A stretch of DNA of 64,000 bases, taken from Eledone cirrhosa (taxonomy: Eukaryota). The stretch spans positions 309,380,001 to 309,444,000 of the forward strand of contig OZ024740.1 of NCBI GenBank assembly GCA_964016885.1, in the 5' to 3' direction. Below are positions 1,006 through 63,464 of this stretch, piece by piece. The notes beneath the pieces were generated by a model. It did no database searches. It saw only the letters and a program-made list of their open reading frames with translations, and was not told the origin of the DNA. A program made the translations under genes and the position numbers. Each line of letters starts with the position of its first letter. The stretch's first letter is position 1.

Positions 1006-1063
<58 letters not shown>

Positions 1064-1100
1064 TACAGAATAATCAAAACTATATTCAAATCATTTTATT

Positions 1101-1145
1101 GCTGACAATCGTTTCTTCCAAACCTTCGTTTGGAATCATCGGAGC
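1101..1145 (-). ncRNA. Minimal type I hammerhead ribozyme motif (inverted copy of 1752-1798)
   Basis: Reverse complement reads gct CCGATGA ttccaaac gaag gtttggaa GAAAC gatt GTC agc. Confidence 0.65.
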
Positions 1146-1662
1146 CGAGCACTTGCAAAGTTTAGACATATAAATAACCTCCTATTCCACTGAACAATTG
1201 TAAAGATACATAGATGTTAGTGTTGTCATTAACAGTGTCATATTTAGAGAGTGAAGATGATGTGGTCAGTATCAGTGGATGTGACAAAGATTATAAAAGA
1301 ATAATACAACAATTATAGAGGAATTAAAGAAAAAATTTACTCGCAAAATGAGGACATTAGCAGTCCATATGCAAGTGTATAGAAAGAGTGCAGATGTGTT
1401 AGGCATGTAGAGAATAACCAGGTAAGAAACAACCAAAGGTACTAAGCATATATATCACAGTATGGCAAAGCTATCACATAATACAGTACAGGTATAAAAG
1501 CTTATTAAGCAGATAGAGATGGTTGTGTATGAAAAGCAGTTTCTATGAAGCTTATGGTGGATGTAGTGTGATAATTCATACATACCTATATATATATATA
1601 TAGGTATCTATATATATATATGTTCATACATACCTATATATATATATATATGTTCATACATA

Positions 1663-1704
<42 letters not shown>

Positions 1705-1751
1705 CCTTCATAGAAACTGCTTTTCATACACAAATATAGGTATATTGCAGG

Positions 1752-1798
1752 TGCTCCGATGATTCCAAACGAAAGTTTGGAAGAAACGATTGTCAGCA
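1752..1798 (+). ncRNA. Minimal type I hammerhead ribozyme motif (U4C core variant)
   Basis: tgct CCGATGA ttccaaac-GAAA-gtttggaa GAAAC gatt GTC agca: 4-bp stem I, 8-bp stem II with GNRA loop, GUC site. Confidence 0.7.
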
Positions 1799-2245
1799 AT
1801 AAAATGTTTTGAACATAGTTTTGATTATTCTGTAATTTATATTCCGGCTCTGTAAAACATCTGATGTATTTACATTGAGCTATTTTTCCTACTGGTAATA
1901 AGGTAGTAATAAATTACTGACCTTTCCTGTTTATAATTATATATAGTGTATATATAAGTATAAATAATATTATTATTATTATATATATATAGGTATGTAT
2001 ATATATATATATAGGTATGTCTATTATTTCTCCCGAATGAAACAGTTCTAGTCCTGTAGAAGTCGTTTCTATATTAAATATATATATATATTTATATATA
2101 CATATACACATATGTATGTATGTATATCTGTATGTGGTTGACAACTGAAGGAATAGAGTTCTCAATACCGAAGTAGAGTTTTAATATTCATTTTATTAAG
2201 GCTAAATCAGGGTCATCAGGCAGATAACAGTTCTCAAAACATTTA

Positions 2246-3552: not shown

Positions 3553-3699
3553 GAGTTTACATAGAAAAAAAATCCTCATTTGATTTGCTACACTGTGACA
3601 TATATTTATGTAATACAAGCTTTTACACATTGAAATAATAGTATCTTTATGGCCTATTTTTGTATCTTTGTTTGTATGTATACATATCTATATGTATAT

Positions 3700-4700
3700 A
3701 CAGAAATGGCTTCTTCGGGACTAGAACTGTTTCATTCGAATAAAACAGTTCTAGTCCTGTTAAAGCCATTTCTATATTAAATCTTGTATATACTCTACTA
3801 TATTTGTCTTTGTGTTTGACATTTGTATATGTGTCTTGTGTGTATATGTGTGGGTTTGTATATTGTACTGTTGTGTCTTCCTATGCTGCTTGATACTTAT
3901 GTGTCCTATTCTGTCTTCTGTTATTAGTTTGTGGTGTTAGGGTGTATATATTCCATTCGTGTTTTCTGTTGAGGTTCAGTCTATTTTCTATTATTTGTGT
4001 GGCCTTTGTAATTTGTCTGAGCATTGTGTTGGTTCTTTGTATGGATAAGATCTTTACTTCTATGTTATCTATTGATCCCCCATGTTATAGTTTGGCATGC
4101 TGGTATCACACTGACGAGCTTTTCTCCTCCTTGAGTTCTTACTAGAGTTCCTTTGTCCTCTCTATTCAATGGGCTGTTTCACCTACATATGTCATTGTTA
4201 TGTTTATGCACCAACCCTCTGTACACCTTATTCTGTAGACTACATCCCTAGTTTCGCAGTTTACCTGTGGGCTTACCCTACACACTATACAGTTTCAATC
4301 AGTAGAAAGAATTCTTTCAAAAGGATGTGTCCTACTAATCAGGAATTTTATGGGAGTTGTTGGCTTTTCTATCACCTTAATTCTTAAATTCAGTTTATCT
4401 AAGGCTTTTTTCTAAAACTATACACAATCCAAGGGTATCACAGGCAAGCATGAAGTTGACCATCCCTATCTGCCTCTTAGTTTTTTCTATACTTTTTTCT
4501 ATACTGTATAGTGGGCAAATCCCACTTGGGTCATTCTCTATGATGGTTTTGAATTTAGTCATGGCTTCTTTGTACACCCTAGTCTCTTTGGCTGTATCCA
4601 GAAAACTGCATGCAGTGGATGAAGTGCTGTAAATGTCTCTCTAATTTTATTGGGTCACACATGTAAGACATGGTTTTTATCACTGTTAATATTTTCATTG
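3700..4700 (-). mobile_element. Penelope-like element 3' remnant (GIY-YIG endonuclease pseudogene plus 3' region)
   Basis: Manual minus-strand translation gives CIVCRVSPQVNCETRDVVYRIRCTEGWC...YVGETA and LRQITKATQIIENRLNLNRKHEWN with stops and frameshifts; ends in a hairpin at 3700-3775. Confidence 0.75.
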
Positions 4701-6147
4701 TTGTTGTCATTGCTGGTAGTGGAGTTGATGTTACTGTATGTGCTGTTGTTAGTATTGTTTATGTTAACTTATGTTTTCCTGGTTGTCTGACTTGTTATTG
4801 CTTGTGTGATTCACATTTGTCTGTGTGTTGCTAGTGTTAATGTCTTCACATCATGAAACAAATGCATAATCGAATATATATGTTTGTGTGAGTGTGCCTG
4901 TGTATATATAGTATATATATGTATGTGTGTGTGTGTGTGTGTGTGTGTTTGTGTACATATATGTCTGTATATATGTTCATATATATGTGTATATATATAT
5001 ATGTATATATAAATATTTATATAATATATATATATAAAATATGTGTGACTCTCTGTCTCTGCTCCTGTTTGTATATATAGTTTCTTCTCTCATATGTAAT
5101 TTTATATATTTCATATATTTGCCTGGTAATTTTATATATTTCATATATTTGCCTGCATGTATCAAGAAAGGAAAATATTAATATTAAGATTTATATTGAT
5201 GATTTTAACAAGCATATATATATATATATACATATATATATGTATATGTATGTATGTGTGTATTATTTTGCTATGTATAAATGCAAATATGTTTGTGTTA
5301 AAACTTGGCTGTCTTTATATATTTTCTTTACATGCTTTTTAATGAAGAAAAAACAATCATAATAAATTTTGCAGTGCTGCTGGAGAGCTGGGCTCTCTTA
5401 ATATTTATATATATACACATATATTTTTTTTTTTGATTAAACTAATTCAAAAACATTTTAAAAAACATATCTAATAAATAATACAATCCCAGTAATTTTT
5501 TCATATTTAGAGGATGAATTCAAAATAAATAAGAAATAGATTGACCTATGAATATATCTTTTTTCCTTGATATTCATTTTGTATATCATTCTATTGGATT
5601 TCAAATTAATATGAATGACTAGCAAATATATTCTCCTTATGCTAGAATTTGATGTGTCTATATGACTGAATGTGTGTGTCTGGTTTGTAAAAAAAACTTG
5701 AAATTTCTTATCAAATCAACATTGTGACAACCAAATGATCTCCACTAACCTTTTCTGTCACATTGTTTATCCTTCATATAGTTTATAGTTTTACTTATGC
5801 AATTTTATTCTTTTCAATATCTCTCTGTATCTCTCACATACTCTCATACATAGACCCACATACATATATACAGTTATGAGTGTGTATGTATGAATATATA
5901 TATATACCCATACACACACACACGCATATATATATGCGTGTGTGTGTAAGTTTGTGTGTATATTTGTATGTATGTATTTTGTATATTTTATAAATGAATG
6001 TAAAGTGTGTGACTACAGTGTCATACATCATCATAACCAACTATACACAATGAATTTCCAGATATTACTGGGGATTAATAGTTGACTGAAAAACAGGATT
6101 TAAAAAAAATAGAAGTATCAGACCAAGATTATTATTAATTAAAAATC

Positions 6148-6530
6148 GGTGGATTGGCAATATCGGTAGAGGGTCGGACGCCATGCTTTGCAGCAAAAAG
6201 TTACGGCCCTTTATGGTCTAAGTTCAAATCCCGCCGAGGTTAACTTTGCCTTTCATCCTTACGGGGTCGATGAAATAAAGTACCAGTAATGCACTGGGAT
6301 AATTGCTGGCCTTGTGCCAAAAGTAGAAATAATTATCTGGGTGGTGGATTGGCAGTATCGGTAGAGATTCGGACACCATGCTTTGATGCATTGAGTTATG
6401 GCCCTTGCCATTCTGAGTTCTAATCCCGCTGAGGTTAACTTTGCCTTTCATCCTTATGGGGTTGATAAAATAAAGTACCAGTAATGTACTGGGTATTTGC
6501 TGGCCTTGTGCCAAATGTAGAAACAATTAT
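6148..6530 (+). mobile_element. Two tandem tRNA-derived SINE copies (Meta-like central domain)
   Basis: ggtggattggca..tcggtagag A-box-like, gttcaaatcc B-box-like, gcctttcatccttacggggtcgataaaataaagtaccagt core. Confidence 0.8.
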
Positions 6531-6639
6531 TAATTAAAAATCTGACTTATGCACACACAAGTATGATTGTATGTATGTATTTATGTATGTATGTATGTGT
6601 GTATATATATGTATATGTGTATGTATAATGTATATATGA

Positions 6640-6681
<42 letters not shown>

Positions 6682-6764
6682 TTACAGTTATGACGACGAT
6701 ATATATATATATATAGTAAAAGAATGAAGAATAACATGGTCGGCTGTACAATAGGGTTTATTTA

Positions 6765-6877
6765 CAGTATTAACAATTGTTTCTTTAATCAGGTGAGTCT
6801 AAAAGCTGCTGATCGTTAGAAATTACGTCACTCAACCTTAATTACAGTCCATACCTGATCAAATCGTCAGAATACTG
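6765..6877 (-). ncRNA. Hammerhead ribozyme motif, 80-nt domain II
   Basis: rc: cagtatt CTGACGA tttgatcaggt...acctgattaaa GAAAC aatt GTT aatactg; perfect 7-bp stem I, 11-bp stem II. Confidence 0.85.
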
Positions 6878-7129
6878 GAATATATATATATATATATATA
6901 TACAATAAATATATGAGAGTCTCTCTATCAAAAAATCAATTTTTTTATGAGGTGGGAAGAATTAATGCATGCTATGAAAAAATCAGGTGGCTTATTTGCT
7001 TTTGAAATAAGCTGAATATTTTCATGCTACCATGTATGAAATATTTGTTAGTTGGAATAATGTTTTCAAAATTAAAGATACTGCCGGTGTTATTATTATT
7101 ATTATTATTATTTCATTTATCTTGCTTTA

Positions 7130-7530
7130 TGTTCATACGAGTTATCACCAAGTCACAACCAGTGACCTCAAGAGACATCAAGGTCTGCCATGTTCAAGAA
7201 AGAACACATACACACATACATGTATCTTTAGTGTTTAGACTTGTGATGTATTTATATTGACAAAATCTTCCTTAGTATATGGGCAGTTCCCATTAGTACT
7301 ATCTTTTGTATTTCTTCTATACGCGGGTTTCCTGGGATTTGGGATAAGTAATCATTAGACACCTTAGGTATTATTCCTAGAACACCTACAACCACTGTTA
7401 TTGTTTTAGTTTTCAACTTCCACATTTTTCCAGCTTCTATCTCCAGGTCTTTATACTTGCTCAATTTTTCAAATGTTTTTATAGATACATTCTTGTCTAT
7501 TGGAACAGACATATCAATTAGCAAGCATAC
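7130..7530 (-). mobile_element. Non-LTR retrotransposon 3' end (restriction-like endonuclease domain, R4/NeSL-type)
   Basis: ORF 7252-7524 LIDMSVPIDKNV..KTFEKLSKYKDLEIE..MW..KT..I.VVVG.LG...IQKIVLMGTAHILRKIL is a typical RLE C-terminus. Confidence 0.8.
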
Positions 7531-7534
7531 CCTC

Positions 7535-7566
<32 letters not shown>

Positions 7567-7567
<1 letters not shown>

Positions 7568-8195
7568 GGGCGGTGGATTAGCAGTATCGGTAGAGGGTCA
7601 GACACCATGCTTTACGATCTGAGTTCAAATACCCCGCCGAGGTTGACTTTACCTTTCATCCTTACGGGGTTGATAAAATAAAATACCAGTAATGCACTGG
7701 GTAATTGCTGGCCTTGTGCCTAAAGTAGAAACAATTATTATTATTAATCAGTTCATTCGGTGGATTGGCACTATCGGTAGTGTTGTACAACAAGCTTTGT
7801 AGCATAGAGTTACAGCCTTTTATGTTTTGACTTCAAATCCCACCAAGGTTAGCTTTGCCTTTCATCCTTATGGGGTTGATAAAATAGTGCACCAGTAAGT
7901 ATTGGGTCTAACTTAATTGACTTTCCCTCCCCTTCAAATTACTGGCCTTGTGTCTAAAGTAGAAACAATTAATAATAATGGTTTCTTATATAGGCACAAG
8001 GCCAGCAATTTTGGGGGAGGGGAAAGTCGATTAAATCAACCCCAGTGTGTGACTGGTACTTTATTTATCGACCCCGTAAGGATGAAAGGCAAAGTTAACC
8101 TCGGTGGGATTTGAACTCAGATCATAAAGGGCCGTAACTGTTTGCTGCAAAGCAAGGCGTCTGACCCTCTACTGATACTGCCAATCCACCGCCCT
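7567..8195. mobile_element. Cluster of three tRNA-derived SINEs (two plus, one minus)
   Basis: Same head and core as 6148-6530; the copy at about 7983-8195 is inverted. Confidence 0.8.
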
Positions 8196-11000: not shown

Positions 11001-12471
11001 AATTAATTGTTTTAATAAAAATAATTATTGATTTTACTCTCTATATATGCTCTGGGAAATTATAACATTATTGTGATCTGAATTTATACATTGGTATAAA
11101 TGTGGACTGTTTATTACCCTTCATATTGTTGACTATTAAATCATATTGAACTTCAAAATGTCTACACCATAAATACTGTTGTACCCTCAACTTATTTTAA
11201 TAGGTTGTGTTTATATATATATATATATAAAAGAGAAAACACAGGTAAGCATTAAGAAAAGGATTTTATCCAGGTATTTACGACCGTTTCATTGGTAACG
11301 TTGAAACTGTCCATGAAACTGGCTTTCTTAACCACGAACTGGATCACAATAAGCAATTTCCTGCTTCCCTAACTATATATGTATATATATATATATATAT
11401 AAAAGTATATATATATATATTTTTGTATAATTACATATATATATTTATTTATTCAGACATTATCTATCTATCTATCTATATTTATATGTTGTATATATTC
11501 ATTTATATATACATATACATATATACTGTATCAAGTGTTAAACCTATATCTTCACTTTACTTTGTTTGCTGTATTTTTCCTTTTACTTGTTGCATATATA
11601 TATATCTATACTTATTTAATGCATAAATATATACATTGTATGCATGTGAGTAGATAGTCTGACCCCTCATCTCTTCCACCTCCTATTCCTATGACCTTTA
11701 TACCTCTTCTTTTTCTACTCCACTCCTATCCATTAACCACTATTTCCCCCACCCACATTATTTCCTTCCCTTGATAGATATACCTATCATTCTTTGGGGT
11801 CCCCAGCACTCCTCCCCCATCCTCCCCTTTAGTGCAGTGCAAGATCTCCCAGCCAGCTTACCACTATGATGAATTTAACCATAGTACTACCAAGCCAGCA
11901 GTGACCTAATTTTCCACATCCTACATAAATTTTTCCCCTCAAAAATTCTTCTTAACTCTCTGTACACCCTCGTAAAGGCTTGGTGAACACAAGAAAAAGC
12001 TTGTTGGTGCTGCTGTCAGGTTTATAACTCTCTCTCTGTTGAACCCTCATATGTTGAATCGACAGGAGAGTCCATCATATATACATACATACATATACAT
12101 ATATTTAAGTTAACGAGGTATCGTTTAAGGCAATCCAAGAAGAGGTTTTGAGTACTCTGTATCGAGGATAGTTTTAACGTTCTGCGTTGTTTGACTCAAC
12201 AAGAAGTTTACTTAGTTGTGGTGTTCAGGTGGCCGATTCAATACAGTTCCTAGGTAAGTGGTTCCTGGAGTATTAATAATAAAAGAGTGAAGAATAACAC
12301 GAATCGGGTTATTCGAAGTATTAAAAATGTTTCATTAGTCCAGTGTGTCTAAAAACCGCTATTTGCAGTATGCTGTGGCACTTGATTTTAATTACAATTG
12401 ACACCCAACTAAATTTTCAAAATACTGATCAGTATTGTTATGCCGATCCGTATTATTCTTCACTCCTTTAT

Positions 12472-12777
<306 letters not shown>

Positions 12778-15709: not shown

Positions 15710-15900
15710 TGTGGATTGGCAGCATCGGTAGAGGGTCTGATGCCATGTTTGCAGCAAAGAGTTACAGCCCTTTATGATCTGAGTTCAAATCCCACCAAGG
15801 TTAACTTTGCCTTTCATCCTTACGGTGTTGATAAAATAAAGCAGCACTAATACACTGGGATAATTGCTGGCCTTGTGCCAAATGTAGAAATAATTATCAA
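15710..15900 (+). mobile_element. tRNA-derived SINE
   Basis: Same family as 6148-6530. Confidence 0.8.
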
Positions 15901-19645: not shown

Positions 19646-19692
<47 letters not shown>

Positions 19693-19695
<3 letters not shown>

Positions 19696-20082
19696 GAGGG
19701 TAATCCCAAAAGTAAGGTCTGCGATGGGGATGCAGAGAAACTGTTCGTACGGCTGTTGGCAACACTGTTGTGATTGGTGCTTCCTTCACTCCCAAACAAG
19801 CATGCGTCATGCGTGCACTTCGCTGGGATGCTCAATCTTGGCTTGGCAGCCATTGAGAATGGAGCTCCCATTGAATGCTACTGCTAAGTGTGAATTTCGC
19901 GCAGTTATTATATATGAGGGCAATCCCAAAAGTAAGGTCTCCTTCTGAGGAAAACATGCGTAAAGAAGATCGGCGGAGGATGCTCTCTGCATTTTGGTTC
20001 CTGAGGTTTGCCGAAGCACCATCCACAGGATTTTAACGGAAAAGTTGCAATATCGGGAGGAGACCTTACTTTTACGATTGCC

Positions 20083-20088
<6 letters not shown>
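19693..20088 (+). mobile_element. Mariner-derived internally deleted/nested element
   Basis: TIR tacgagggtaatcccaaaagtaaggtct at 19693, repeated at 19913, inverted at 20059-20088; [17 protein letters not shown] transposase N-terminus; TA flanks. Confidence 0.8.
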
Positions 20089-20303: not shown

Positions 20304-20352
<49 letters not shown>

Positions 20353-20482
20353 ATGTATATATATATATATATAAGAAGAAATTAAAAGATGGTTAGAAAA
20401 GTTCCATGTATTTTATTATGCGCATCTCAAAAACAAATATCATCCAGGGACGATATTTGCGTTCTTATCAGATATGTCTCCC

Positions 20483-20553
20483 TATTTTATCTGATGAGAA
20501 CACAAATATCGTCTCTGGATGATATTTGTTTTTGAAATGCGCATAATAAAATA
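20483..20553 (+). ncRNA. Hammerhead ribozyme motif (AUA site, GCGC loop III)
   Basis: tattttat CTGATGA gaacacaaatatcgtc tctg gatgatatttgttttt GAAAT gcgc ATA ataaaata; 8-bp stem I, long stem II, U-A pair replaces C-G in stem III. Confidence 0.85.
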
Positions 20554-21728
20554 CATGGAACTTTTCTAACTATCTTTTAATTTCTTCTTATATATACTCC
20601 AGTCCAATAAACTGTTGAGTGCTACTTATCCAATATTTGCATTGCTTTATTGTGCTACAATAAAATTCACCTCCTACATATATATATATAGGAAAAGAGT
20701 CGGAACCGACTCTTTTCCTATTACCCACTCTACTACCCAAAGTATCGAGTACTCTGGTGTGTTATGGTCCACCTGGTTCCTTACCACACTTCCTTCGTTA
20801 TATATATATATAACCCATGTTAGCATGGAAAATGGATGTTAAACGATGATGATGATGATATATAATATATATATTAAAAAAAAAATGTATATATAATGTA
20901 TTATATATATATATATAATAGTAGTAGTAATAATATTATTAACTGGAGTATTAAAACTGCTTTACCGATTGCTTCAAAGCTCAATGCAATGGGGTTCATA
21001 AGTGCTGTTATATTAATTTCAAAAACACCTTGAATCTTCAGTGTTTTCAAAATTAATATATATATATATAACTGAACAAAAATGAAAAAACGAACACAGA
21101 CATATATATATATGTGTTCAAATTGTAATGGACCAAAATCGCTAAGGTGAAAAAAATACTAGTAGTTACCACAATACTGGTTTGTATTTATTTTTCTTAA
21201 TTTGTTCTTAAATTGAGCCCAGCAAACCCTATTGTCTGTAGTTAGTATTTTTTTCACCTTAGCGATTTTGGTCCATTACGATTTGAATACAATATATATA
21301 TGTGTCTGTGTTCGTTTTTTTCCTTTTTGTTCAGTTATATACGGCTCGGAAAAGCCTTTTTCCTAGAGCTAATTTACTGTAATGAGACTATTTTGAGTTT
21401 CTAACTCAATACAAGCTTTTGATATATATATATATATAGTAAAGTGGGTTAAACCAGTGTTCTAAATAGCTTGCCAAGTCATGCTGTCAGCATGACTTGG
21501 CAAGCTATTTAGAACACTGGTTTAACCGCTTTACTTCCCTCCGAAAAAGAGATATTATCTTGAAAATTAAGGACATTTAAAATAAATCTAAGGTAAAAGA
21601 CTAATTGTCAACAATATCTTTTGCATTTGCATTCTTTATTCTATGTCCATACCTGCATTGTCTTGGTTTTACAAATACAAACGTTTATTACCTCATTACA
21701 CAATGCTTCAAGTGAACTATAACTTCCT

Positions 21729-21761
<33 letters not shown>

Positions 21762-21837
21762 CGAAGGAAATGTGGTAAGGAACCAGGTGGACCATAATTT
21801 TAGTCCAGAATTAGTAGCCGTCGGGGTCCTACTTGTT

Positions 21838-22453
<616 letters not shown>

Positions 22454-23817: not shown

Positions 23818-23956
23818 TATATATATATATATATATAAAGGTACTGGAAGGTAATATCCATAGTAGTAGAGCACTCAGTCCATGGGATGAGTTTGGTAGA
23901 AATAGTAACACAACAGTTAGTTCACCATACCGAGAACAAATGTTTCACCTTAGAGT

Positions 23957-23996
23957 CTGAGCTGAAGATCCGCTAAGGTGAAACATTTGTTCTCGG
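23957..23996 (+). ncRNA. Compact hammerhead ribozyme motif at the centre of a fold-back
   Basis: ctgag CTGAAGA tccgctaaggt GAAAC attt GTT ctcgg. Confidence 0.65.
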
Positions 23997-24579
23997 TATG
24001 GTGAACTAACTGTTGTGTTACTACTTATATATATACATTTGTAAATAAGACTGTTATTGTTCCAATCCGCCCACAAAACTCTCACTCTAAACCTAACACT
24101 AACCTGCACTCAGGACTCCTGCTAAACCAATCAATGATCCACTTCCCAAATTCAGCACACCAAACGCTGACCACCCACCTTTCAAACTTGGAAAACCGAT
24201 TACGGACTGCAACAGCCACCAAATGGGAAAAACAGACAATGTTAAGCTGCAACTGTGTTGATATAAATCAGTTCATTATTTAATTCAGAGAATTTTTTTT
24301 ATGGCAGGCATTTCAGTGTTGACAGACAAACAAATATTATATGCTATAATAGATTCTGCAGCAGTACAATAACAATGGTTAAAATGTATCAAATCTTAAC
24401 ATGCTGTATTATATACTTCTTTTCATATCGGAGAATATTGCATATAGCTACACTTCAACCCACAACCCTAAAGAATAAACCAGTAGTATGCACATCACAC
24501 TGTTTTTTTTTTATATTTATTTTTCTGGCAACTATCTTACAAATGATCTATGTAGTTTATCAGTTACTCTCAGGTCTCG

Positions 24580-25803: not shown

Positions 25804-26689
25804 CTGCGCATCCGTATATATGTGCATGTATGTATCTATATGTGTGTGTGTGTGTCTGTGGTTATGTCCCATAACTTAGTGATTCAATAAAAAAGGAGAA
25901 TGATAAAATAAGACTTGTAAAAATAAGTACTGGTGTCAATTTCAACTAAATAAAGGTGGTGGCTTAACATAGGTGTTATCTAATGACTGACTCAGTAAAA
26001 TAATTTGTGTTGACTGTACATGAGATAATAAAGGTATGCTGATATGGAAATGGCTTGAACATATTGGTTGTGTGACCTCCAGCTTGCTACTGAAAACATC
26101 TTTTTATTGTGTGTCACAAGGAAAGAGAAAACAGTATAAATCAAAAGCTGTTTGGTTCGAAAACAGAAATGAAGAACTGAAATGCATGGGAAGGATTTTT
26201 CAGACTTGTTAAAATGGTAAAGTGGAGATCATTTGAAATCACCCTATGTGGCAATAGGCATGGAGTAGACTAAATAATAAATAATTATATACACATATAT
26301 GTATGTTTCTTGTGTGTGAGTATGTATGTATGTATATATATCATCTAACTCGTGCTATCATGGAAAAATGGATGTTAAATGGTAATGATGTTGATATATA
26401 TATAGTGTATGTGATTCATTGAATTACTGGTGGTGGTATTAAAACAAGCACTCTATGTACAGGCAAAGTGTATATATTAGAAGAAATGAGGACATCTTGT
26501 TTACATGTATAAGATTTTTATTGCGTATCGTCCTGTTACATGTGTTTCTTAAAGGATTGGCTCATAGATACATACCCACTTATATATATGTATATATATA
26601 TATATATAATGTATCTTACATTGCCCATTGAGTGCGCTGTAATACAACTGGTACTGGCATTGATAAATATGCTGGGTCCGTCAACCCTT

Positions 26690-33565: not shown

Positions 33566-34377
33566 CTGCAGGAAAAAGTATAAAACAGTAATATGACTGC
33601 AATGGATTAAAAATTAAAGTTTTGTTTTTAATACTTCATTTTACAATAATTTGCCTCCGAGTAAACATACTATAAAGATTTGAATTAACAAACCCGTTTT
33701 TAGATATTTTCTGCAAAATCATTACAGGATATTAAGAGTCAATTAAACAGGTTTGTTATGCAGTAAGATCAAATTTGGAAACCACACAACCATGCTTGTC
33801 CCCATGGTTAAATTCATTCAAGTTGTAACCATTTTAGTTGATCCCAGACACAATACACCTAAAACAACATTATTCAATGCATCCTTATTATTTTTTTTAT
33901 AATTCCCAAGATAGTAGTATGTACTTTGAGGAAAATTTTACCTAATTTTCCTACAATGATGATAGGGTCCTATACTTTAAGTAAAGCAAAATCTATAATT
34001 TAAAAAAAAAAGGTAAAATTTGATATATAAATTTAAAAGTAATTTTGCAAATATAGTTGCCACAGTGAAGATAATTAGAATAACTCCTAACATTGGTACA
34101 AGGCCAGAAATTTGGAAAGGGAAATCCTTGGTACTTAACTGGTACGTTATTTTATTAAACTTAGAAGGGTGAAAGGTAAAGTTGACCATACCAAGATTTG
34201 AACTCAGAATATAAAGGGCCAGAATTAAATGCTGCAAAGCATTTTGTTCAATACATTAATGATTCTGCCAATCCACCACCCTTTGTATAATTATAATAAT
34301 AGCTGATAACTATAAATAAATTGGGTAAAGCAATTCTGGAGATGGAAAAAATGTGAGCAGAGACAACTATTATTTAT

Positions 34378-34540
34378 AATGCATTACTGGTACTTTATTC
34401 TATCGACCCCGGAAGGATGAAAGGCAAAGTTAACCCACCGAGGTTAACTTTGCCTTTCATCCTCCCGGGGTCGATAGAATAAAGTACCAGTAATGCATTG
34501 GATAATTGCTGGCCTTGTGCCAAAAGTAGAAACAATTATT
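34378..34540. mobile_element. SINE core arranged as a palindrome
   Basis: About 59-bp arms of the SINE core, head-to-head around 34438. Confidence 0.8.
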
Positions 34541-35509
34541 TATAATTATCAACTATTATAGTTATCTGCATTATGGTGACTACATTTAAAATTACCAAAT
34601 GCTTCATGAGTTATCTAAATCTTGTGTTCATTTAACCCTTTCATGACCTCATTTCTAATGAAATACTCTCTATTTCAATTAATTAATGAACGATTTTGAG
34701 GGATTTCCTAAAATTATAAATTATTTCATTATCAAGATAGTAAGTAACTTACATTGGAAACCTTTAAAATGAGTGGTTTTATTTCATAGAACCAGAGCTG
34801 GTTTGGCTGGGTCAGTAACTAAAGGGTTAAAGGAGTTTTGACAGGATTAAAGATTGCTAATGAATTACCAGAAACATTTTTATTAAAACCAAAAAAAAAA
34901 ACTTCTTTACCCAGTAATCCACATCTTCTTAATAACCAATAATCAAAATTACCTTATTGCAATCTTTAGGTTCTTGGTTCGATCCTACTGTATGGCATCT
35001 TGGACAAGTATTATTTACAATGGTTTGCATTGTCTCATGACTTGAGAGTGAAATTTTGTAGACAGAGAATGTTTGCAAGCCTGTTGGATAGACTGTACCT
35101 GTTAATTCATAGGGCCAGTCATATCCCATGCAGTATCGCTCTGAATCTCCCTGAGAATAAAACTAAGGGTATGCATGTCTGTGGAATACTCATCCACTTA
35201 CACATTTATTTCATGAACAAGCTGTTCCATTGATTGGACATCTGGAACACCTGGAACAGTCATTGTTGAAAAAAAAACTGATCGAGGTCCATTGATCAGT
35301 TAATATTGATTATTATACCCAACCAGTACTGTAGTAAAAGAGATAAGTTCTAATGAAGCTGAATTTCCAATCTAATTTCCATTTCCTTTTGAAGTCATTT
35401 CACAAATGCTGTAAAGTACTTGGAAATGATACGAATATCACATCTCCATTTCTTTTCCACTAAATATCTGAGGCATGGTATCTAGTAAAAAATTATAATC
35501 AATACATAC

Positions 35510-36053: not shown

Positions 36054-37029
36054 GCATATAAGCACCTGAAGATAGGTCACAACAAGCAACAAATCAAATA
36101 CTACAGTACAATGAAGAAATATATTAGTTTAATGCTTGATATAGTTGAAAAGAGTCTTAATGTTTCCGACACTAGCCCTTCACCAAAAGATTGAATGAGA
36201 AATAAAAGAAGAAATAGAAACATAAAGTGAGAAGAGGATGAAATAGATAACAAATTGGGGGAGAAAATGGCTATTTGGGGGAAAATAAGTACCTAACACA
36301 CATATATATATATAGTATAAAAGAACGAAAAATCAGTGATGCATCTGGACTCAATTTATTGCGTGTTACAATTGTTTCACCGGCAGGTAGCTCGAGACAT
36401 GGTCACTGTATGACCCAGTGATAACATTTGCTCCGAACGAACTACCCGTATCTGAAGGAACCTGCAGCCATAGAATCAGCCAGATCCATACAGGGACCAT
36501 GTCTCGAGCTACCTGCCGGCAAAACAATTGTAACACACAATAAATTGAGTCCAGATGCATCACTGATTTTTTGTTCTTTTATACTATCCACACTCTACTC
36601 TGTTGAATATTGAGTGCTAATTTTGGCATACCGCCTATGGAAGCACCATAGCTACCATTATACACAAGTATATATATATATATGTAGGTATGTATACACA
36701 CACACACATACACACACATACATATACATATGTATATGTGCATGTGTGTGTACTTATATATTTTTTCTAGAATGCTCTCTCTTCTACATACACATACACA
36801 CACAATGGTTTTATCCCACTAAAATATTTTGACAAAGAAATTTGTATATAGTCAATAAATTTGTATTGAACATTTATAATATGTTCATAATGTATTTAAC
36901 ATTTTTGATGGGTGCATTGCTTTGAACAGGAGTTTGATTGCAGTTATCTTGTAAATAAATGTACATTTAAGAATATAATTTACCAATATAATTTATTATT
37001 ATCATTATTATTATTTTATTATTATTATT

Positions 37030-37375
37030 TTCAAATCCCGTCGAGGTTAACTTTGCCTTTCATCCTTACGGGGTGATAAAATAAAGTACCAGTAATGTAC
37101 TGGGTAATTACTGGCCTTGTGCCAAAAGTAGAAACAATTATTATTATTTTCAATGAGGATGGTGGTTTGGCAGATTTGTTAAAGTGCTGGACAAATGTTT
37201 TGCAATATTTGTTCTGGCTCTGTACCCTATGATTTCAAATCTCACCAAGGTCAACTTTGCCTTTGATTCTTCCAGAGTCGATAAAATAAAGTACCAGTCA
37301 AAGATTGGGGTCGATATAATCGACTTTCCCCTCCCTTCAAAAATTGCTGGCCTTGTGCCTAAATTAGAAATAATT
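37030..37375 (+). mobile_element. Two tRNA-derived SINE copies
   Basis: Same core as 6148-6530. Confidence 0.75.
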
Positions 37376-38078: not shown

Positions 38079-39312
38079 TATCATCATCATCATTTTATGT
38101 CCACTTTTCCCTGCTTGCAAGGGTTGGATGGGTCCTATTCAGTACAGCATCTCTCCACTTGTCACGGTCCTTCGTCATCTCCTCGGTGAGTTTCATCGAT
38201 CTGAGGTCTGCTCTCACCACCTCCGTCCATGTTTTACGTGGTCTATCTCCTCTGCGCCTTCCTTCTACTGGGATTTCTTGGCACTTCTTTACCCAGCAGT
38301 CATCTTCTATGTGCATCACATGTCCATACCATCTCAGCCTTCTCTCCTGCACACCACAACTTATCCCTCTTATACCCAGTTTCTTTCTCAACTCGTCCAT
38401 GCTTGGTCATTCACGCACATTGACATTGCACATCCATGAAACATACTTGCTTCCTTTCTCTCCAGCCGTCGCTTATCCTCTGCAGTTGCCGCCCATGTCT
38501 CACTACCATGCAGCATCGTGCATCTCACACAGGCATCATATAACCGTCCTTTCGTATGCAGGGAGAAACTCTTCTTTGTCAACAAAGGAAGCAGCTCCCT
38601 AAACTTCTTCCAACCTGTCCTTATTCTAGATACTATGGCCTCAGAACGCCCCCCCCCCATGTTAATCTGATCATCTAGGTACCGGAAGCTATCAACCACT
38701 TCTATAGAACCCACCTGCATTGGAAAAGTGTGTCTATCACTGCGATTAATACTGCCAACTTTCCCTGTACAGATACTGCATGTGGTTTTCCCTACCTGTT
38801 AGTTTGCCTGCTATCCCACTGCATCTCTTGTGTACATTTTATGGAATTTATGCCAGTTCCTTTCCTACATATTGAACATGGCATTTCCCTGATGGAATCA
38901 GAGTATTGTCCTCTCTTCTACTTATCAACACTTTTGTCTTAGCTATGTTCACTCTCAGTCCTTTTGATTCCAACTGTTGTTTCCATAGCCAGAATTTATT
39001 CTCTACCTCCTCTCCTGATTCTGATATAAGAACCAGATCATCAGCATAGAGAAGTTCCCATGGACATCCAGTCTTAAACTCCTCTGTTATGGCTTGGAGG
39101 ACTATAATGAACAAGAGTGGGCTGAGGACCGAACCCTGATGTACACATACTTATATCTGGAATTCCTCACTAAACTCCATACCTACTCTCATTTTACTGA
39201 CAGCACCCCTGTACATAGCTTCACTGCTCTCACAAGCCATTCCTCTACACCTAGTTTCCTTAGGGACCACCAGATGACAGATCGGGGTACCCTATCAAAG
39301 GCCTTCTCTAGG
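38079..39312 (-). mobile_element. RTE-clade LINE, 3' 1.2 kb, abutting a PLE
   Basis: PWELLYADDLVL, FRYL, RIRTGWKKFRELLP, RRLRWYGHV; (ATG)n tail at 38079-38092. Confidence 0.92.
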
Positions 39313-41230
39313 TCACCATACACCAGCACCTATCACTCTCTGAAGCTGAGCGCTCCCTCCTCGCCCGTGGTTTGCATTTTATACCAACCACATCAACACG
39401 TGCTGAGATTGAAGGGTTCTTCCGTCAACTAAGTCTCAAAGCTTTTTTTCACAACATGCCATCATCGACACAGATGGATGACTTCACTCGTCGCACTTGC
39501 TGGCAATCATATTGGATGCCGAGCTCTGGCCAGTTCAGCATCCTTGACTCCTTTGTTGATACTTCCCAACGTACTGTGAACCGGTTCCGTTTCCACCAGC
39601 ATTCTTGTCACTCTAACATTACGCGGGCTGAGCTCTCTGCTCTTCACAACCTATGGTGTCGCGATGACGTTGTCATCAAACTTGCTGACTAAGGTGGCAC
39701 TGTGGTGGTTTGGAGTGTTGACCTCTATAAGGCTGAGGCCCTCCGCCAACTTCACAATACCCTATTTTACCGCCCTTTATCCTCCGACATCACTCCTGGC
39801 TACCAACAACTCATGTCCTCCACCATTCACCAGCTCATCCCCTCCTCTCTCCTACCCCCCACAGCCACCAACCTTATAGTACGCACCCCTCACCCACCCA
39901 CTATCTACTTCCTCCCTAAAATATACAAACCAATTAATCACGGCCATCTTATCATTTCCACATCTCTGAATACTTAGATACCTTCCTTGCTCCGTTTATC
40001 GTCAACCTCCCCTTCCACATCCATGACACCAATCATGCCCTTAGACTCTTTAACTCCTTCTCATTCCCTCCTGGCCCCTCTTGTCTTCTCTTTACCCTGG
40101 ATATTACCTCTCTCTATACCATCATCCCTCATGATGATGGCCTCCACGCTCTCCGACACTTTTTACCACATTTAAGCGTGCCCGTAACCTCAGCGACCTC
40201 CTAGTACGCAGTTCCTTCTTGTCCTCTCCTACGACTCCACCTGGCTCTCATCCCCGCTACAACACTTGTCCATTCTTTCCCACCCTCACCACTCTCACAG
40301 GCCCCAACGGTTCATTTTGTATCCGCCACTCCTTCACCTGCACATCCACCCACGTTGTCATGTCCTTATACATCGGACAAACAGGACGCCGTTTGGCGGA
40401 CCGTTTTGCTAAACATTTGAGGGACATACGATTCGGTTTAGATACTCCAGTTGCCCGTCATTTCCCTTCCCCTGGTCACTCTTTCCTACATGTCTCAGTC
40501 TTGGGTGTCCTTTTACATCACGGATCACAGGCCTCGCGCACCAAGACTGAACAGCGTCTGATTTACCGCCTTGGGTCCTGTTTCCCTCATGGACTCAACT
40601 CCCCTCTCCAGTTTCTTTAATACCCCGTCTGTTATCACACACGCGCTTGTACATTCACCCCTAGATTCCCATGGCTCCTTATGGCCAGAAACATATAGTC
40701 TTACAGCTAATACAGACCAACAAAATAAGCACACTCCTCTTTTCTCTTCACTGCTCTGTATACACACACACCCTTATATTAACATACTTTTGCTCATAGC
40801 TTCGTACTTTCAAGCACACACACACACACACACACACTATTTTACTTACATATACACACACATATCCTCTTAGCTTCGTACGGAGGTATAACACACATAC
40901 TCACGCGCGCACATGCACACGCACAAGTATAGCTCTTTATACAAAACGGTTTTTTTTTTTCCATTTCAGGTAGACGCGCTTCATCATCCACTTTTCTAGA
41001 AAAGTATATCATACACAAAACGCCTGCATCAACAGTTTTCCAAGAGTTGGCAACATGAATGGACCTGTTATTTTTCTCTATCGTCCTTATCGTCCCTTCA
41101 ATCTTTCTAATTTCTCATTCTTACTTCTGATGAAGGACTAGCGTCCGTAACGTTAAAACCCTCTTCCTGCTATTTCAATTGTTGACCTAATATATTCCTT
41201 CCATATACTGTACCGATTGTGTTGTTATTT
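39313..41230 (+). mobile_element. Penelope-like element, internally deleted (RT and GIY-YIG remnants)
   Basis: VVIKLAD*GGTVVVW, IYFLPKIYKP, TLDITSLYTIIPH; FTCTSTHVV..LYIGQTGRRLADRFAKH..PVARHF..LIYRLGSCFPHGLN; degenerate ctgatga aggactagcgtcc gtaac at 41127. Confidence 0.9.
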
Positions 41231-41461: not shown

Positions 41462-42407
41462 CATATATATATATATATAGATATAATAAGGAGTTGACAG
41501 ACCCAGCATATTTATCAATGCCAGGACCGGTTGTATCTCAGCGTACTCAATAGGTAATGTAGGATACATTTCCAGAGTATACACATAGTTATTCGCTTCA
41601 ATACAACACACGTAAAACTTAATGCAGCAGTAGGGTGTACTGCACACTCTGTCTGCATATATTATGCAACTATGCATAATCGGCGTATGTGGCTTCATCA
41701 GCAGGTATCGCCTAATCAATAAGCAATCGATTGACAGAATCCAAACCCCAGCCCATGGCGGCTATGACTGTTTGTGATAACCGACACAGTAAAGTGATTA
41801 GCAACTGGAACCCGATACAACTCTGTTCCCCGACCAGCCACCGATTTACAAATTTCACGTGGTGGCGGGAGAATAGAAAACAAATCTTTTCGTTCCCGTC
41901 AAAAGCATTCAGCCAACGTGTCTCACACACAAATTAATAAGAAGTGAAAAGATGGTTATTATAAATAGCAGTCCCACATCGATGTATAATAGAATGGTAG
42001 CATTCGGCTCATGTCTCCAAGTCCCATGGCTAGAGGAAAGCGATAGTAACAATGGTAGTGCCAAGAACCTTTAACGGGCATTATATGCCAGTATCTATGC
42101 GGCAGCCGCGTGCGTAAACCAGTCTATTTCAGAACTTAAAAGAGTGAGAGATAAAATTAATAGCAGGAATTAGAGCGCATATCCAAACAAAACAATAAAA
42201 AAATGTGAAAAATTGTTTAACTTACACTCATTAATCCGCTAGTTGGGAAATAATATAATAAGGAGTTGGCGGACCCAGCATATTTATCAATGCCAGGACC
42301 GGTTGTATCTCAGCGTACTCAATAGGTAATGTAGGATACATTCCCAGAGTATACACATAGTTATTCGCTGTAATACAACGCACGTGAAACGGGTGCCTAT
42401 AATGGTT

Positions 42408-42518
42408 CCCGGACTCGAGTTTCGGCCACACTTAATGCAGCAGTAGGGTGTACTGCACACTCTGTCTGCATATATTATGCAACTATGCATAATCGGCGTA
42501 TGTGGCTTCATCAGCGGG
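42408..42518 (-). ncRNA. Hammerhead ribozyme motif (GUC site, UCGA loop III, 84-nt branched domain II)
   Basis: rc: cccg CTGATGA agccacat...gtgtggcc GAAAC tcga GTC cggg. Confidence 0.88.
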
Positions 42519-42688
42519 TATCGCCTAATCAATAACCAATCGATTGACAGAATCCAAACCCCAGCCATGGTGGCTATGACTGTTTGTGACGGCCGACACA
42601 GTAAAGTGATTAGCAACTGGAATCCGATACAATTCTGTCCCTCGACCAGCCACCGATTTACAAACTTTACGTGGTGGCGGGAGAATAG

Positions 42689-42992
42689 TGTGGTTAGAAA
42701 AAGCTATCTCACTTACCGCTTTTCACAGGCGCCGCTAAATTCCACTGCAGGTTACTCCTCTTCCACGTGCGACCAACTGCTTAACACCGGGAGCTGCCCA
42801 AAACTCGCGTCCACACCATTTGCTGGTCACCACTAGAGAGAGGCCCTCTGCTGGCCCTTCCGGTCGAGCATCCTTCCGGCCAAAAGACCCTTCCGGTCAA
42901 GCATTCCCCCGCCTCCGGCCACCGCACGCCACACACCCTTCCGGTCGAGTACTCCCCTGCCTCCGGCCACCGCACGCCACACCATACCCACA
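42689..42992 (-). repeat. 3' LTR (304 bp)
   Basis: Direct repeat of 46635-46938; about 9 differences by eye. Confidence 0.95.
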
Positions 42993-43005
42993 CGCTCCCC
43001 TGATC

Positions 43006-45290
43006 TCAAGGATCAATTTCCCCCTCGTCCCTCTGCATATGAAAGTCTGCTGTCCAGGTCGGTGGTCTACGACTTCGTTGCGATCTTCGTAGTATTGGGG
43101 CAGGGCTCTGGGTTTCCACCTCATCTTGGGTTTCCTCTTCCTCGGAGTCCGTCGACACAGTGATTCTTCTTACATCCAGGACATGACGTGGTACCCCGTC
43201 CACGGACACATTGTTCTTTGAATTTACGGCCGTCACCGTTCCCCTTCCCCATTGAGATGTGCAACGTGCATCTGGGGGCTTAACCCAGACTTCTTCGCCC
43301 ACCTGCACGAATGCACTCTCTCTCCCCACTGGCCGTTGTGGTGGTGTGCACGGGTGCCGCCACTCGTATTTGAATACTGCTCTGTGTGGCACCGATTCCT
43401 CGACCTGTCCAACCCGAGGGGACATATTGTACCAGAACACTGCCTCCATTGGTGAGATATGGCCCCGCTCCGCCATTGCCTTGATCGTCCGGTGGTGTCG
43501 CTCCACAATTCCATTCCCGCTCGGCCTGTGCGCCGCTCTGAAGAAACGGTCCACCTTCCATCCATCGAGCATCTCCCTCAGTGCCTCCGAGCGGAAGGCT
43601 GCGCTGTTGTCCATCAGCAGTTCGTCCACAGGGCCCCGCTCCAAGAACACCTCTCTCAACGTCCGCACGATTTCCTCGGCCGTTCCAGTCCTCATCTCCC
43701 TCCATATCGCCATTCGACCTGGTCCACAGTCGACCATCGAGAGGTACGTTCCCTGGCGGTAGTGCGTCACATCCACCGCTAATCGCTTCCAGTCGCGATC
43801 CACCGGGAGGCTTCCCGTTTCGTGTACACCCAGGGCGGGATCAATGGACTGACATCGGACGCAGCCTCTAACCACCCCCCGAACACTGTGTCTGCTAACG
43901 TCCGAGTCGATTATCCTGGCTAGGAACAGGCTCCTATCCACCCCCATGTGGTGCATGTCATGCAACCCCTTCAGGTCTAACTCGGTCAGCCGACACACGG
44001 CAGCTATCTCATCTTCTACCTCCTCCGGCGCTTCCATCCAGGCTTTCTTCACTCTAGTTAAGATGTCCGCCCTATTTTTCTCTGAGGGCACGAACACTAC
44101 GCTCAGCTTCAGGTCGAACTCGGTGGCCAGCTCTCCTAACGTTCCCAGGCGGCGCTTTATCAGCATCTCCGCCGCGCCTCTCGTTCGCACTCTCTTCTCA
44201 CTGGTGAGCACTGATCTTACCCATCCGAGTACAGTAGCCGAGTCGGTGCGTATCTCGATGGTGCGCAGCCCCCACCGCAGGGCGAGGTTCACCCCTCTCA
44301 ACACCGCGTCCAGCTCGGCCACATTGATGTGGCTGCAGTCGTCCTTCTTTCTAAGCCAGGCTGCATCGTCGACCTCAACACCTCCTATCTCCAACGTGAC
44401 ACCCAGCGCTATGCTGCTGGCATCGCACCATACGGTCCCGCTCTGTGATTTGGGAACGTACCAGCGTCCCCGCACTGGGTCGTCGGCCTTCACCCTCCCC
44501 ACGATCTCCTGCATCATGGCCACCGTCCTCTCTCCCACTCTGTCACTCCAAGTCACCCTTCCCGCTCGTCTCTTGACATAGCTGCATGCCGTCCGGAGCC
44601 ACCCAGCGATCGGGTAGTGACCCACCAGCTTTCCACACACCGAGAAAAGCTCCCGCCTATTCATACTTGGGCCCAGTTCCGGAACTTCGTTTCCCCTCTG
44701 GAACACCAAAACGCCCGTCTTGTCTCGCCGTAGCCTAAGTCCCAGCGCGGCTCCTCCCTCCAATGCTTCTGATGGCTTCGTAGTCAGTCCATACCTCCGC
44801 AAATGGCTCGTGACCTCCGCCGTCGACACCACCGACTCGTCCACTAGGATGTCGTCAATATAGGAGTTAGTAGCCCTCTTTATCTTGTCGGCTCTCCCCA
44901 GAGCGGTCTTGAGGACCGCCGCCATGATCTTCGGTGCGGAGCTCAGCCCGAAACCGAGCCTGGTCAGGCAATATGTCCGGCCCTTATACCTGACCAGCTG
45001 ATACCGCCAGAGCTTCTCATCTATATGCAGCTGCAAGTAAGCCGACTTTAGATCCACGATCGCTGAACCCCCCGTCATGCGTCTCCACTCACGCAGGGTT
45101 TCCCCACAGACATCCGTGACCTCGCCACCCGTGTGGCATGACACGTGCTCGTTCAGCTCCCGATAGTCCAGCACCGGCCTCACCTTGCTCTTCGTGGGTT
45201 GCACCAACGCCATCAACGGCAATACTCCGCACTTCACCTCCTCCTTCCAGGGCAGCAGTATGCCCTCTTCGATCCATCTCTCTACTTCTC
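43006..45290 (-). CDS. pol: Pol: reverse transcriptase, RNase H, integrase
   Basis: VDLKSAYLQ, LGFGLSSAP, YIDD; WCDAS, AELDA, TDS; HxxH..CVRC, VDVTH, MDN, NGIVER; frameshift near 45290 separates it from the protease. Confidence 0.92.
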
Positions 45291-45871
45291 GCGCCTAGCG
45301 TTTCCCTTCAATGTGTGTTGATAGCAGCCCACTTTGGTCTTCAGTGTTGGTGGTTCTCCCTTCCAGTACCACTCAACAACCCATCGCTGCCCATCAAACA
45401 CGGCCTTGAAGTCTTTGTCCTGTACGGTGTAAGCGGGGTATTCCTCCTCGTGGGCCTTCTGGTTCTCATGACGTGCACTCACAGCGCATACCGATGCAGC
45501 GGCGCCAAACGACACACCGACATTGTTCACCGTGACGCCCCCTAGACGGCCAATCGCGTCCATGCCCATAACCACGCCGATCCCATCCACCACACTGTCT
45601 ACCACGATGGCGGAAAGCCTTATCCTCCTTCCCCGTACCGCTATTTCCATCTCGCTGCGACCTCGGCACTCATTTTCCTGCCGTCGACTGCCCTTACGCT
45701 GCTCTTCCCTCCCCACCTCTGCGCCACCCCTGCGGTCACCAGTGTCGTCGTACAGCCCGTATCCACGAGGGCTCGCTGTGGCTTCCCCCTCACGAAGACT
45801 TCCACCACGGGCAGCGCCGCTACTCGTAAGGGGCAACTACCGGCGCAGTAGTTCCCCTTGGATCGTTTCCC
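45282..45871 (-). pseudogene. Aspartic protease region (frameshifted)
   Basis: ALVDTGCTTTLV in the -1 frame relative to gag, then a shift into the listed ORF containing VVMGMDAI. Confidence 0.8.
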
Positions 45872-46572: not shown

Positions 46573-46634
46573 CTTCTGATCTGTCTTGCGGCAAGTGTTT
46601 TTTTTTGTTTTTTTTTTCAGTCGCCGAAATAGCT

Positions 46635-46938
46635 TGTGGTTAGAAAAAGCTATCTCACTTACCGCTTTTCACAGGCGCCGCTAAATTCCACTGCAGGTTA
46701 CTCCTCTTCCACGTGCGTCCAACTGCTTAACACCGGGAGCTGCCCAAAACTCGTGTCCACTCCGTTTGCTGGTCACCACTAGAGAGAGGCCCTCTGCTGG
46801 CCCTTCCGGTCGAGCATCCTTCCGGCCAAAAGACCCTTCCGGTCGAGCATTCCCCCGCCTCCGGCCACCGCACGTCACACACCCTTCCGGTCGAGCACTC
46901 CCCCGCTTCCGGCCACCGCACGCCACACCATACCCACA
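46635..46938 (-). repeat. 5' LTR (304 bp)
   Basis: Direct repeat of 42689-42992 with internal gctcgaccggaagg repeats. Confidence 0.95.
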
Positions 46939-47035: not shown

Positions 47036-47192
47036 GTATTAAGGATACTATTTATGGTTATGTATATACTAAAACCTTTTATAGTTATATATATATTATA
47101 CCCTAAATAGTGAAAGACAGTAATTTATTACTATCTTATTACCAGTAAGATAAATAGCTCAATGTAACAACATCAGTTGTTTTACAGAGCAG

Positions 47193-57608: not shown

Positions 57609-57641
57609 TCTCTTTTCCTCTTTTAACTTTTCAGCACCAAC

Positions 57642-62679: not shown

Positions 62680-62741
<62 letters not shown>

Positions 62742-63120
62742 GTTTACATATATATAAAGTCATAGATATATATGTGTTTTGCAGCGGGTCACGTTGTGGC
62801 TCAATGAAGAATTAATATATTAAATAATCAGAGCTATATATCATAAAACATGTCTATAGAATCACTAGATAAAATATATACCGTTTCCTCTCCCAATTAG
62901 CATAATTAACCATATTAAAAAATCAATTAGACCAAGCTCTAAGAATAAAGGCTTCTATGAAGAAATCTCCAACAAATAACCGAAAGCAGCCCCTTCGCGG
63001 CGGTTACGACGGAGTATTTATCGAACATTTCGACAGCATGTATAAATGGACCAGATATACAGTCAACTAAACATAATTAAGTGTAAAATAAACTTGGAAG
63101 AAATGTGTACATATTTATTT

Positions 63121-63198
63121 ACCTCTACTATGGTTTCGTCCGTATTTTAAGACATCCGATAACAGGGGACATCCAGAGCTTCAGATTCATCAGGAGTT
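63121..63198 (-). ncRNA. Hammerhead ribozyme motif, 49-nt domain II
   Basis: rc: aactc CTGATGA atctg...cggac GAAAC cata GTA gaggt. Confidence 0.7.
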
Positions 63199-63399
63199 AT
63201 CTCAAATTTAGACAATTAATTTTCCAAAGTGATCGCGCCAAGAATACATTCAAAAATGGCTAAGAATCGTGACGTGGCAGCGGTCAAGTTAGAAAGGATG
63301 TGATTAGTTGCTTACGGTTGGTAGGTTTATTGCTAGAAAGCGCAGCCCAATACAGGAAACGGTATATATTTTATCTAGTGATTCTATAGACATGTTTTA

Positions 63400-63464
<65 letters not shown>

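Follow-up and report, generated by a model that had tools for sequence, protein, structure and literature searches.

Between 20366 and 20690 of the window, as we call the whole 64-kb stretch of DNA analysed here, lies a mirror-image, non-coding insertion of approximately 300 bases which sits inside a (TA)n repeat (Table 1). Its two arms, 20366-20474 and 20488-20596, are identical at 104 of 109 positions and are separated by a spacer of 13 nt; the fold of the pair gives a z value of -28 relative to 100 shuffles. An earlier sequence-only reading had placed the inverted arms at 20370-20474 and 20488-20592, which are contained in this pair, and had noted two mutations in the hammerhead core of the left arm. 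These are located at 20466 and 20426, the G8 and A14 positions, respectively, and stem I of this arm also lacks the greater part of its 5' strand. The right arm had been called intact, which is correct for the hammerhead core but not at 20502, 20514 and 20571, where the majority letter of the family is that of the left arm. Lastly, the inverted arm does stop, as had been claimed, at a TA run before an RCUC hairpin; the run is of 8 nt (20589-20596), and its last A doubles as the R of the hairpin. In what follows this run is referred to as site 1 and the end of the tail as site 2.

Table 1. Features of the insertion at 20366-20690 and of other modules in the window
Feature	Position	Strand	Remarks
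Left (TA)n target	20307..20373		final 8 nt (20366-20373) readable as arm or target
Inverted copy, tail-less, 5'-truncated	20374..20474	-	hammerhead core altered at two positions; stem I incomplete
Spacer	20475..20487	+	direct-arm sense sequence, part of stem I 5' strand; also covered by other copies
Type I hammerhead motif	20483..20553	+	stem I 8 bp (20483-90/20546-53); core 20491-97 and 20534-37
Direct arm, pLTR-like	20488..20596	+	arm pairing
Internal TA run (site 1)	20589..20596	+	8 nt, alternating, same as target repeat
RCUC-stem-loop-stem-UU-GAGY hairpin	20596..20620	+	listed family variants confined to loop and bulge
One-sided tail	20597..20677	+	81 nt; terminates at site 2
Right (TA)n target	20678..20690		common to this and next module
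Neighbouring module, another family	20688..20798	+	16-bp arms; hairpin 20727; tail 77 nt; breakpoint 20721
Module	21065..21421	+	hairpin 21344; breakpoint 21341, 2 nt before hairpin; internal TA run crossed by arm
Module	36312..36668	+	hairpin 36592; breakpoint 36587, 4 nt before hairpin
Module	1056..1937	+	hairpin 1847; breakpoint 1842, 4 nt before hairpin; inter-arm gap 607 nt
Module	62738..63408	-	hairpin 62834; breakpoint 62835; hammerhead-like core at 63193
Module	23837..24030	-	hairpin 23892; breakpoint 23903; tail arm without TATA
Older module	12200..12474	-	hairpin 12271, 3' strand degenerate; breakpoint 12276
Junction of antisense tail end with sense piece that stops at site 1	21761..21840		arms non-overlapping
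Partial tandem, non-coding unit	41481..42688	-	hammerhead; hairpins 42350 and 41578; tail; TAT run at site 2

The hammerhead has a stem II of 15 bp and a loop III which consists of a 6-nt palindrome, and its cut site is predicted to fall after 20545. The core of the right arm is intact and obtained the top score among the four hammerheads which passed the scan of the 64-kb window. Rfam returned no hits at the gathering score, and the hammerhead is absent from its 26 weak hits; the weak miRNA hits were rejected, being explained as the DNA palindromes. Among the 40 variants listed of a total of 112, N7 (20495) is the sole core position to vary in the family, and the changes in stem II preserve pairing (A-U to G-U and the reverse). 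The base of this stem is G20498-U20533, which is A-U in variants, and no extra unpaired base precedes it. Of the traits of the minimal PLE hammerheads of Cervera and de la Pena the long helix II and the palindromic loop III are present, and the G10.1-C11.1 pair and the preceding extra base are absent. As a canonical hammerhead is found in the repeat, the locus differs from the Naiad clade, the repeats of which carry none; a Naiad protein may act in trans on these units.

The RCUC/GAGY hairpin and the breakpoints

A strict rule for the hairpin (RCUC, at least three inner pairs, a 2-nt bulge and a matched outer pair) recovered 13 examples in the window, as compared with a mean of 1.0 and a maximum of 4 in 50 block shuffles. 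The hairpin is common to about a dozen families which are unrelated in sequence, and the inner stems differ from family to family. In the 15 hairpins found in an element context the outer pair is A-T in eight (one with a degenerate 3' strand), G-C in six and A-A in one, and it is crossed in none; its covariation across families has a Fisher p of 0.002 when 11 hairpins are treated as independent. Since the strict rule found a single match in 80 Neptune-like loci (267 kb) of other samples, the hairpin is not general. No description of an RCUC-stem-UU-GAGY hairpin was found in the mainly open-access full texts which were searched.

The window contains 39 local inverted pairs, and in 11 of them one outer end, but not the other, abuts (TA)n. 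In eight of these 11 the hairpin lies within -1 to 10 nt of the break on the opposite arm, versus a background of 1.6% (p = 7e-13), and a non-random placement of the breakpoints, at a TA run next to the hairpin, is upheld within the window. The three pairs which miss are those at 19909 (a transposon-like terminal repeat), 21447 (an unclear module) and 22629 (a TA-rich pair). A recurrent breakpoint had been proposed near 1840, 21340 and 36587, and it was recovered in all three modules at the positions and distances given in Table 1; four others, at 20721 and, on the minus strand, at 62835, 23903 and 12276, go beyond those first noted. With the four of the sequence-only reading excluded, three of the seven remaining pairs match the strict motif (p = 3e-5) and four of the seven (p = 2e-6) a motif which was relaxed after 12276 had been seen. 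The breakpoint rule is real and is wider than was first stated.

The distances between break and hairpin in the eight modules are -1, 2, 4, 4, 0, 5, 4 and 4 nt and the TA runs measure, in the same order, 8, 6, 3, 5, 7, 3, 2 and 3 nt, the sample being one of eight modules from one 64-kb window on which the motif and the distances were both defined. The module with hairpin 23892 has a TA match of 2 nt or less, and its end falls at 4 nt or, ungapped, at 9-10 nt according to the treatment of two mismatches. All eight modules are compatible with one and the same site 5-6 nt upstream of the hairpin, or 5-7 nt if 23892 is left out. The TA run has its 5' edge 6-9 nt from the hairpin, with a variance of 0.84 as against 4.79 at the 3' edge; the one-sided, post hoc p for the 5' edge being the tighter is 0.018 (0.010 without 23892). 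In the modules with hairpins 21344 and 62834 the arms pass through internal TA runs of equal or greater length without stopping; the site is therefore fixed by the hairpin, and not by the TA run alone. Modules 10607 and 50435, which are too decayed for measurement, fall outside the (TA)n selection. The palindrome at 3698-3777 was considered as a counter-example and dropped: it lies behind a different endonuclease remnant, lacks the (TA)n arrangement used for selection and is not among the 11 pairs.

The proposal that an internal TATA acts as microhomology for priming stands in part. At the break a TA run directly precedes the hairpin, but a full TATA occurs in only five of the eight modules, and in none of five held-out hairpins (positions -12 to -1). 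A TAT or ATA at -9 to -5 is present in seven of the eight modules and in four of the five hairpins without an inverted arm, the background being 0.157 (p = 0.003). The fresh feature is the small conserved hairpin with a short TA run at a fixed distance of about 7 nt upstream, and it likely marks the start of copying into TA repeats.

Several copies depart from the symmetrical plan. The tail-less arm of module 23892 exceeds its tail arm by 19 nt and carries the 5' half of the hammerhead. A solo, tail-less relative of module 12271 is found at about 6717-6880 and ends at site 1. Arms which do not overlap, as at 21761-21840, also occur in one single-start joint of sequencing run X7. The partial tandem at 41481-42688 possesses one complete hammerhead, and its upstream unit reads through the tail end to reveal a TAT run at site 2, a feature seen in this, the single family with visible read-through sequence. 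Tails are 60-97 nt in length across the eight modules. Tail-only or nearly tail-only copies lie between (TA)n arrays at 47104-47190 (minus), 25583 (minus) and 26609-26689 (plus); the copy at 47190 begins at site 1 and that at 26609 inside the hairpin loop.

The window also holds other repeats. A Gypsy-like LTR element (42684-46938), with LTRs that share 96% identity and with long minus-strand frames for gag and pol, is inserted in the 5' end of the hammerhead-bearing partial tandem. An L1/Tx1-like LINE frame that is close to intact spans 57627-61079 (plus); motifs of an endonuclease and an RT were recognised by eye in its translation. A short element at 19692-20085, which we take to be Tc1/mariner-like, has 28-bp terminal inverted repeats in (TA)n and an extra internal copy of the repeat. 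At 21439-21730 there is a perfect 48-bp fold-back in (TA)n, the arm of which ends before a small CCUC/GAGA-like hairpin; it is of unclear family and counts among the three pairs which miss. One SINE-like repeat is present in many copies, some tandem or inverted (6146-8194, 15711-15900, 34131-34547 and 37030-37375). From the appearance of its SINEs the host may be a cephalopod.

Family size, class and related proteins

Four of nine sequencing runs (X1, X7, X4 and X5, from three organisms) were aligned to 20475-20799. The matching records number 12895 contigs in X1, 19770 reads in X7, 18 in X4 and 55 in X5, a share of which comes from the neighbouring family at 20706-20799. In all three organisms the family is present in high copy number. 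No listed record of these runs spans the insertion, and its right flank is itself a repeat. Loose ends into (TA)n were observed behind 20578 in 38 contigs of X1 and two of X4, and behind the end of the tail (20679-20690) in all four runs; a dip in depth at 20585-20606 was set aside, subfamily differences accounting for it no less well than breakpoints. Relative to the majority letters the right arm has three private changes and the left arm two, or approximately 2% per arm, and consequently this copy is not recent. Both arms have C at 20566, where 99.9% of the depth has T; this is as well explained if one arm was copied from the other as if the source copy was a rare one. A search of metagenome contigs with an exact 24-nt pattern of the family gave no matches.

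On the basis of its layout, hammerhead, one-sided tail and microsatellite target, the locus is very probably the truncated end of a Penelope-like retroelement. As described in PMC3846280 and PMC8557442, such elements consist of a pLTR, an adjoining inverted 5'-truncated copy and an optional one-ended tail. Traits of the EN+ Penelope-like group which are present here are a type I hammerhead, a head-to-head inverted 5'-truncated copy, a one-ended tail, and a dispersed repeat in AT-rich or microsatellite targets. In its overall form the module is already known, being most likely an ordinary dead, non-coding Penelope-like end. It differs from foldback elements and MITEs in that terminal inverted repeats are not found at both ends, the direct arm running on into the tail; from the L1 type of inversion in that the arms overlap fully (20366-20596); and from non-LTR retrozymes in that it comprises a monomer plus an inverted copy, with no head-to-tail units.

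A search with 124 proteins and a 28-sequence profile revealed no ORF of this family in the modules. Two decayed PLE-type frames, at 39309-40605 and 4282-3989, are present in the window and have no repeat in common with the module. The first (plus strand) is a decayed, Neptune-type Penelope-like frame in which the second half of the RT is deleted. Its identity derives from its best homologs (RT, CX4CxxC linker, GIY-YIG) and not from Pfam, which gave no RT or GIY-YIG hit on two window fragments of this 39.3-40.6 kb frame. A degenerate hammerhead core is located at 41127, some 500 nt downstream, and this copy ends in (CA)n. The second frame (minus strand) is another GIY-YIG remnant and is followed by a native-looking 80-nt hairpin (3698-3777), which partly recurs at 2034-2077; this hairpin belongs to a different family and has no RCUC hairpin as partner. 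The hammerhead and the (TA)n bias hint at the Neptune clade for the partner protein.

The 80 loci of related proteins gave 11 hammerhead hits in 10 loci; ten of the hits are sense-oriented or inverted-copy hammerheads and one is likely a chance match. In L025, an ORF-bearing relative, a head-to-head arm and hammerhead repeat stands directly before the RT-endonuclease frame, and the arms end at a TAT-rich run. L026 and L039 have recurring arm ends and a one-sided extension without (TA)n, and from this we conclude that the class as a whole is characterised by fixed ends and a tail. Long inverted arms which end at a shared AT-rich word, again with a one-sided extension and without (TA)n, are found in the Neptune-like loci L026, L039, L012 and L062. 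In viral contigs the Neptune profile gave five pattern hits and no relatives.

Origin of the inverted arm

We lean, with some reserve, towards dual priming which is placed by the hairpin, uses short TA pairing and occurs inside a Penelope-like RNA. The two cut ends of a TA repeat would each prime reverse transcription within the element RNA, one of them at the end of the tail (site 2). The start at site 1 would owe its position to the RCUC/GAGY hairpin: the primer would end 6-9 nt on the 5' side of it and be paired, presumably on the RNA, with a TA run of 2-8 nt. Both cDNAs would stop near the 5' side of the hammerhead and then, we suppose, be joined head to head, which would yield an inverted arm that lacks the tail, followed by a short spacer and by a direct arm that continues into the tail. 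The RT and endonuclease would probably be supplied in trans. Dual priming is supported by L025, since it has the same layout of arm and hammerhead ending at a TAT-rich run, and an independent start at site 1 by the solo copy near 6870, which ends at that site and has no inverted partner. Two independent starts also agree with the longer tail-less arm of module 23892, with the pieces joined without overlap at 21761-21840 and with the passage of arms through internal TA runs; in vitro, two internal starts were shown to bound the tail (PMC11167929). Dual priming is weakened by the three of 11 pairs which miss, by module 23892 with its match of 2 nt or less, by the rare C at 20566 in both arms and by the search for an ORF of this family, which found none. 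It is also weakened by the in vitro results of Frangieh et al. with PAc (Poseidon of Anolis carolinensis), the only in vitro system of this kind, in which the start site is not homologous to the cut DNA (PMC11167929).

A bolder version of dual priming, which we put forward tentatively and think rather unlikely, is that the hairpin and two TA runs, of which one lies 6-9 nt upstream of it and the other where the tail ends, constitute an undescribed RNA signal resembling the alignment region of telomerase RNA. If so, (TA)n targeting would be partly RNA-guided in an endonuclease-bearing clade, and a single RT dimer would prime both target ends to give the structure of inverted arm plus tail.

Priming at site 1 and endonuclease cutting of the element's own TA run would be expected to leave the same sequence pattern. 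Under the second reading a (TA)-preferring endonuclease of the element, positioned by the hairpin, would cut the DNA copy of the element at site 1 while this is being resolved, and the TA run would be retained as a cut site. This reading, too, predicts the clustering at the hairpin and the conservation of TAT/ATA, and the wobble count for the folding strand, five G-U versus three A-C, does not fix the strand of the hairpin. Craig et al. ascribe the tail to the endonuclease resolving an intermediate (PMC8557442), and the endonuclease of D. virilis needs the tail for recognition and cutting (as cited in PMC11167929). The tail was, however, later mapped in vitro between two RT starts (same source), and the non-overlapping arms at 21761-21840 and the solo copies ending at site 1 are simpler with two primings. 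We regard such cutting as unlikely, though by no means negligible.

Alternatively, a single cDNA begun at the tail end might fold back, copy itself and use TA microhomology to become joined to the opposite end of the target, in which case the TA run is where joining, and not priming, takes place. Self-priming was proposed from junction palindromes in PMC3846280, and the full overlap of the arms at this locus, a spacer derived from the tail arm and the rare C at 20566 in both arms all agree with it. Against it, arms cross equal or longer TA runs, stops cluster at the hairpin even where the match is 2-3 nt, and solo copies ending at site 1 exist. Simple fold-back is further disfavoured because the longer arm of module 23892 is the tail-less one, that is, on the wrong side, and because the arms at 21761-21840 do not overlap, although both of these could be later palindrome deletions. 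On balance we consider fold-back improbable.

Palindromes delete readily, and the window is TA-rich. These points, and the promoter-like TATATATA box noted in a rotifer pLTR (PMC3846280), favour a last reading, in which the TATA is either a promoter box or an accident of AT-rich sequence and the pattern stems from later palindrome rearrangement or a foldback DNA transposon; it is very unlikely and largely refuted, as the TATA is absent in three of eight modules and five of five held-out hairpins, the clustering is strong (p = 7e-13; held-out p = 3e-5), and one arm continues into the 81-nt tail, leaving no terminal inverted repeats at both ends.

The origin of Penelope-like inverted ends, of the tail and of the microsatellite bias is named as open in PMC8557442. 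A hairpin with a TA run at a fixed distance, located at the breakpoint, offers a precise substrate on which priming and endonuclease resolution can be set against each other.

Comparison with known systems

In the twin priming of L1 the second target end primes internally with short complementarity, which results in an inversion; its two segments are free of overlap, and the position of the internal site varies. By comparison, the arms described here usually overlap and the site is tied to the hairpin. The non-LTR retrozymes (bioRxiv 10.64898/2026.07.22.740005) are similar in that short, non-coding, non-autonomous derivatives are discussed there, but the present locus has no head-to-tail array.

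The minimal hammerheads of metazoan PLEs, as presented in PMC4209133, are of type I with a long helix II and a palindromic loop III, as here, and often occur singly or paired on opposite strands, 100-700 bp apart. They have a conserved G-C at the base of stem II, in contrast to the G-U and the lack of an extra unpaired base in the present motif. The Neptune clade likewise combines a hammerhead with a microsatellite bias (PMC8557442), and L025 has the same 5' layout; the difference is that no pLTR links the module to the decayed ORF of the window and that its strict hairpin is found once in the 80 loci.

The complex insertions of EN+ Penelope-like elements, as set out in PMC3846280 and PMC8557442, share with this locus the head-to-head inverted truncated copy, the hammerhead in the repeat, the one-ended tail, and a microsatellite target which masks any target duplication. 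The modules of the window differ from them in tail length (60-97 nt, versus 30-40 nt in the published elements), in having no coding sequence between the repeats, and in sharing the RCUC-stem-UU-GAGY hairpin. The closest experimental parallel in layout is with PAc, for which PMC11167929 reports that in vitro both strands are cut and extended and that two internal RT starts bound the tail. As in PAc, we find a tail bounded by two candidate starts, a stem-loop at the start region, an AT-rich target presumably cut on both strands, and a hammerhead upstream. In PAc, by contrast, the start is in a stem-loop rich in AC which forms part of the ORF; at the present locus the site is a target-like TA run and the tail is not recognisably coding.
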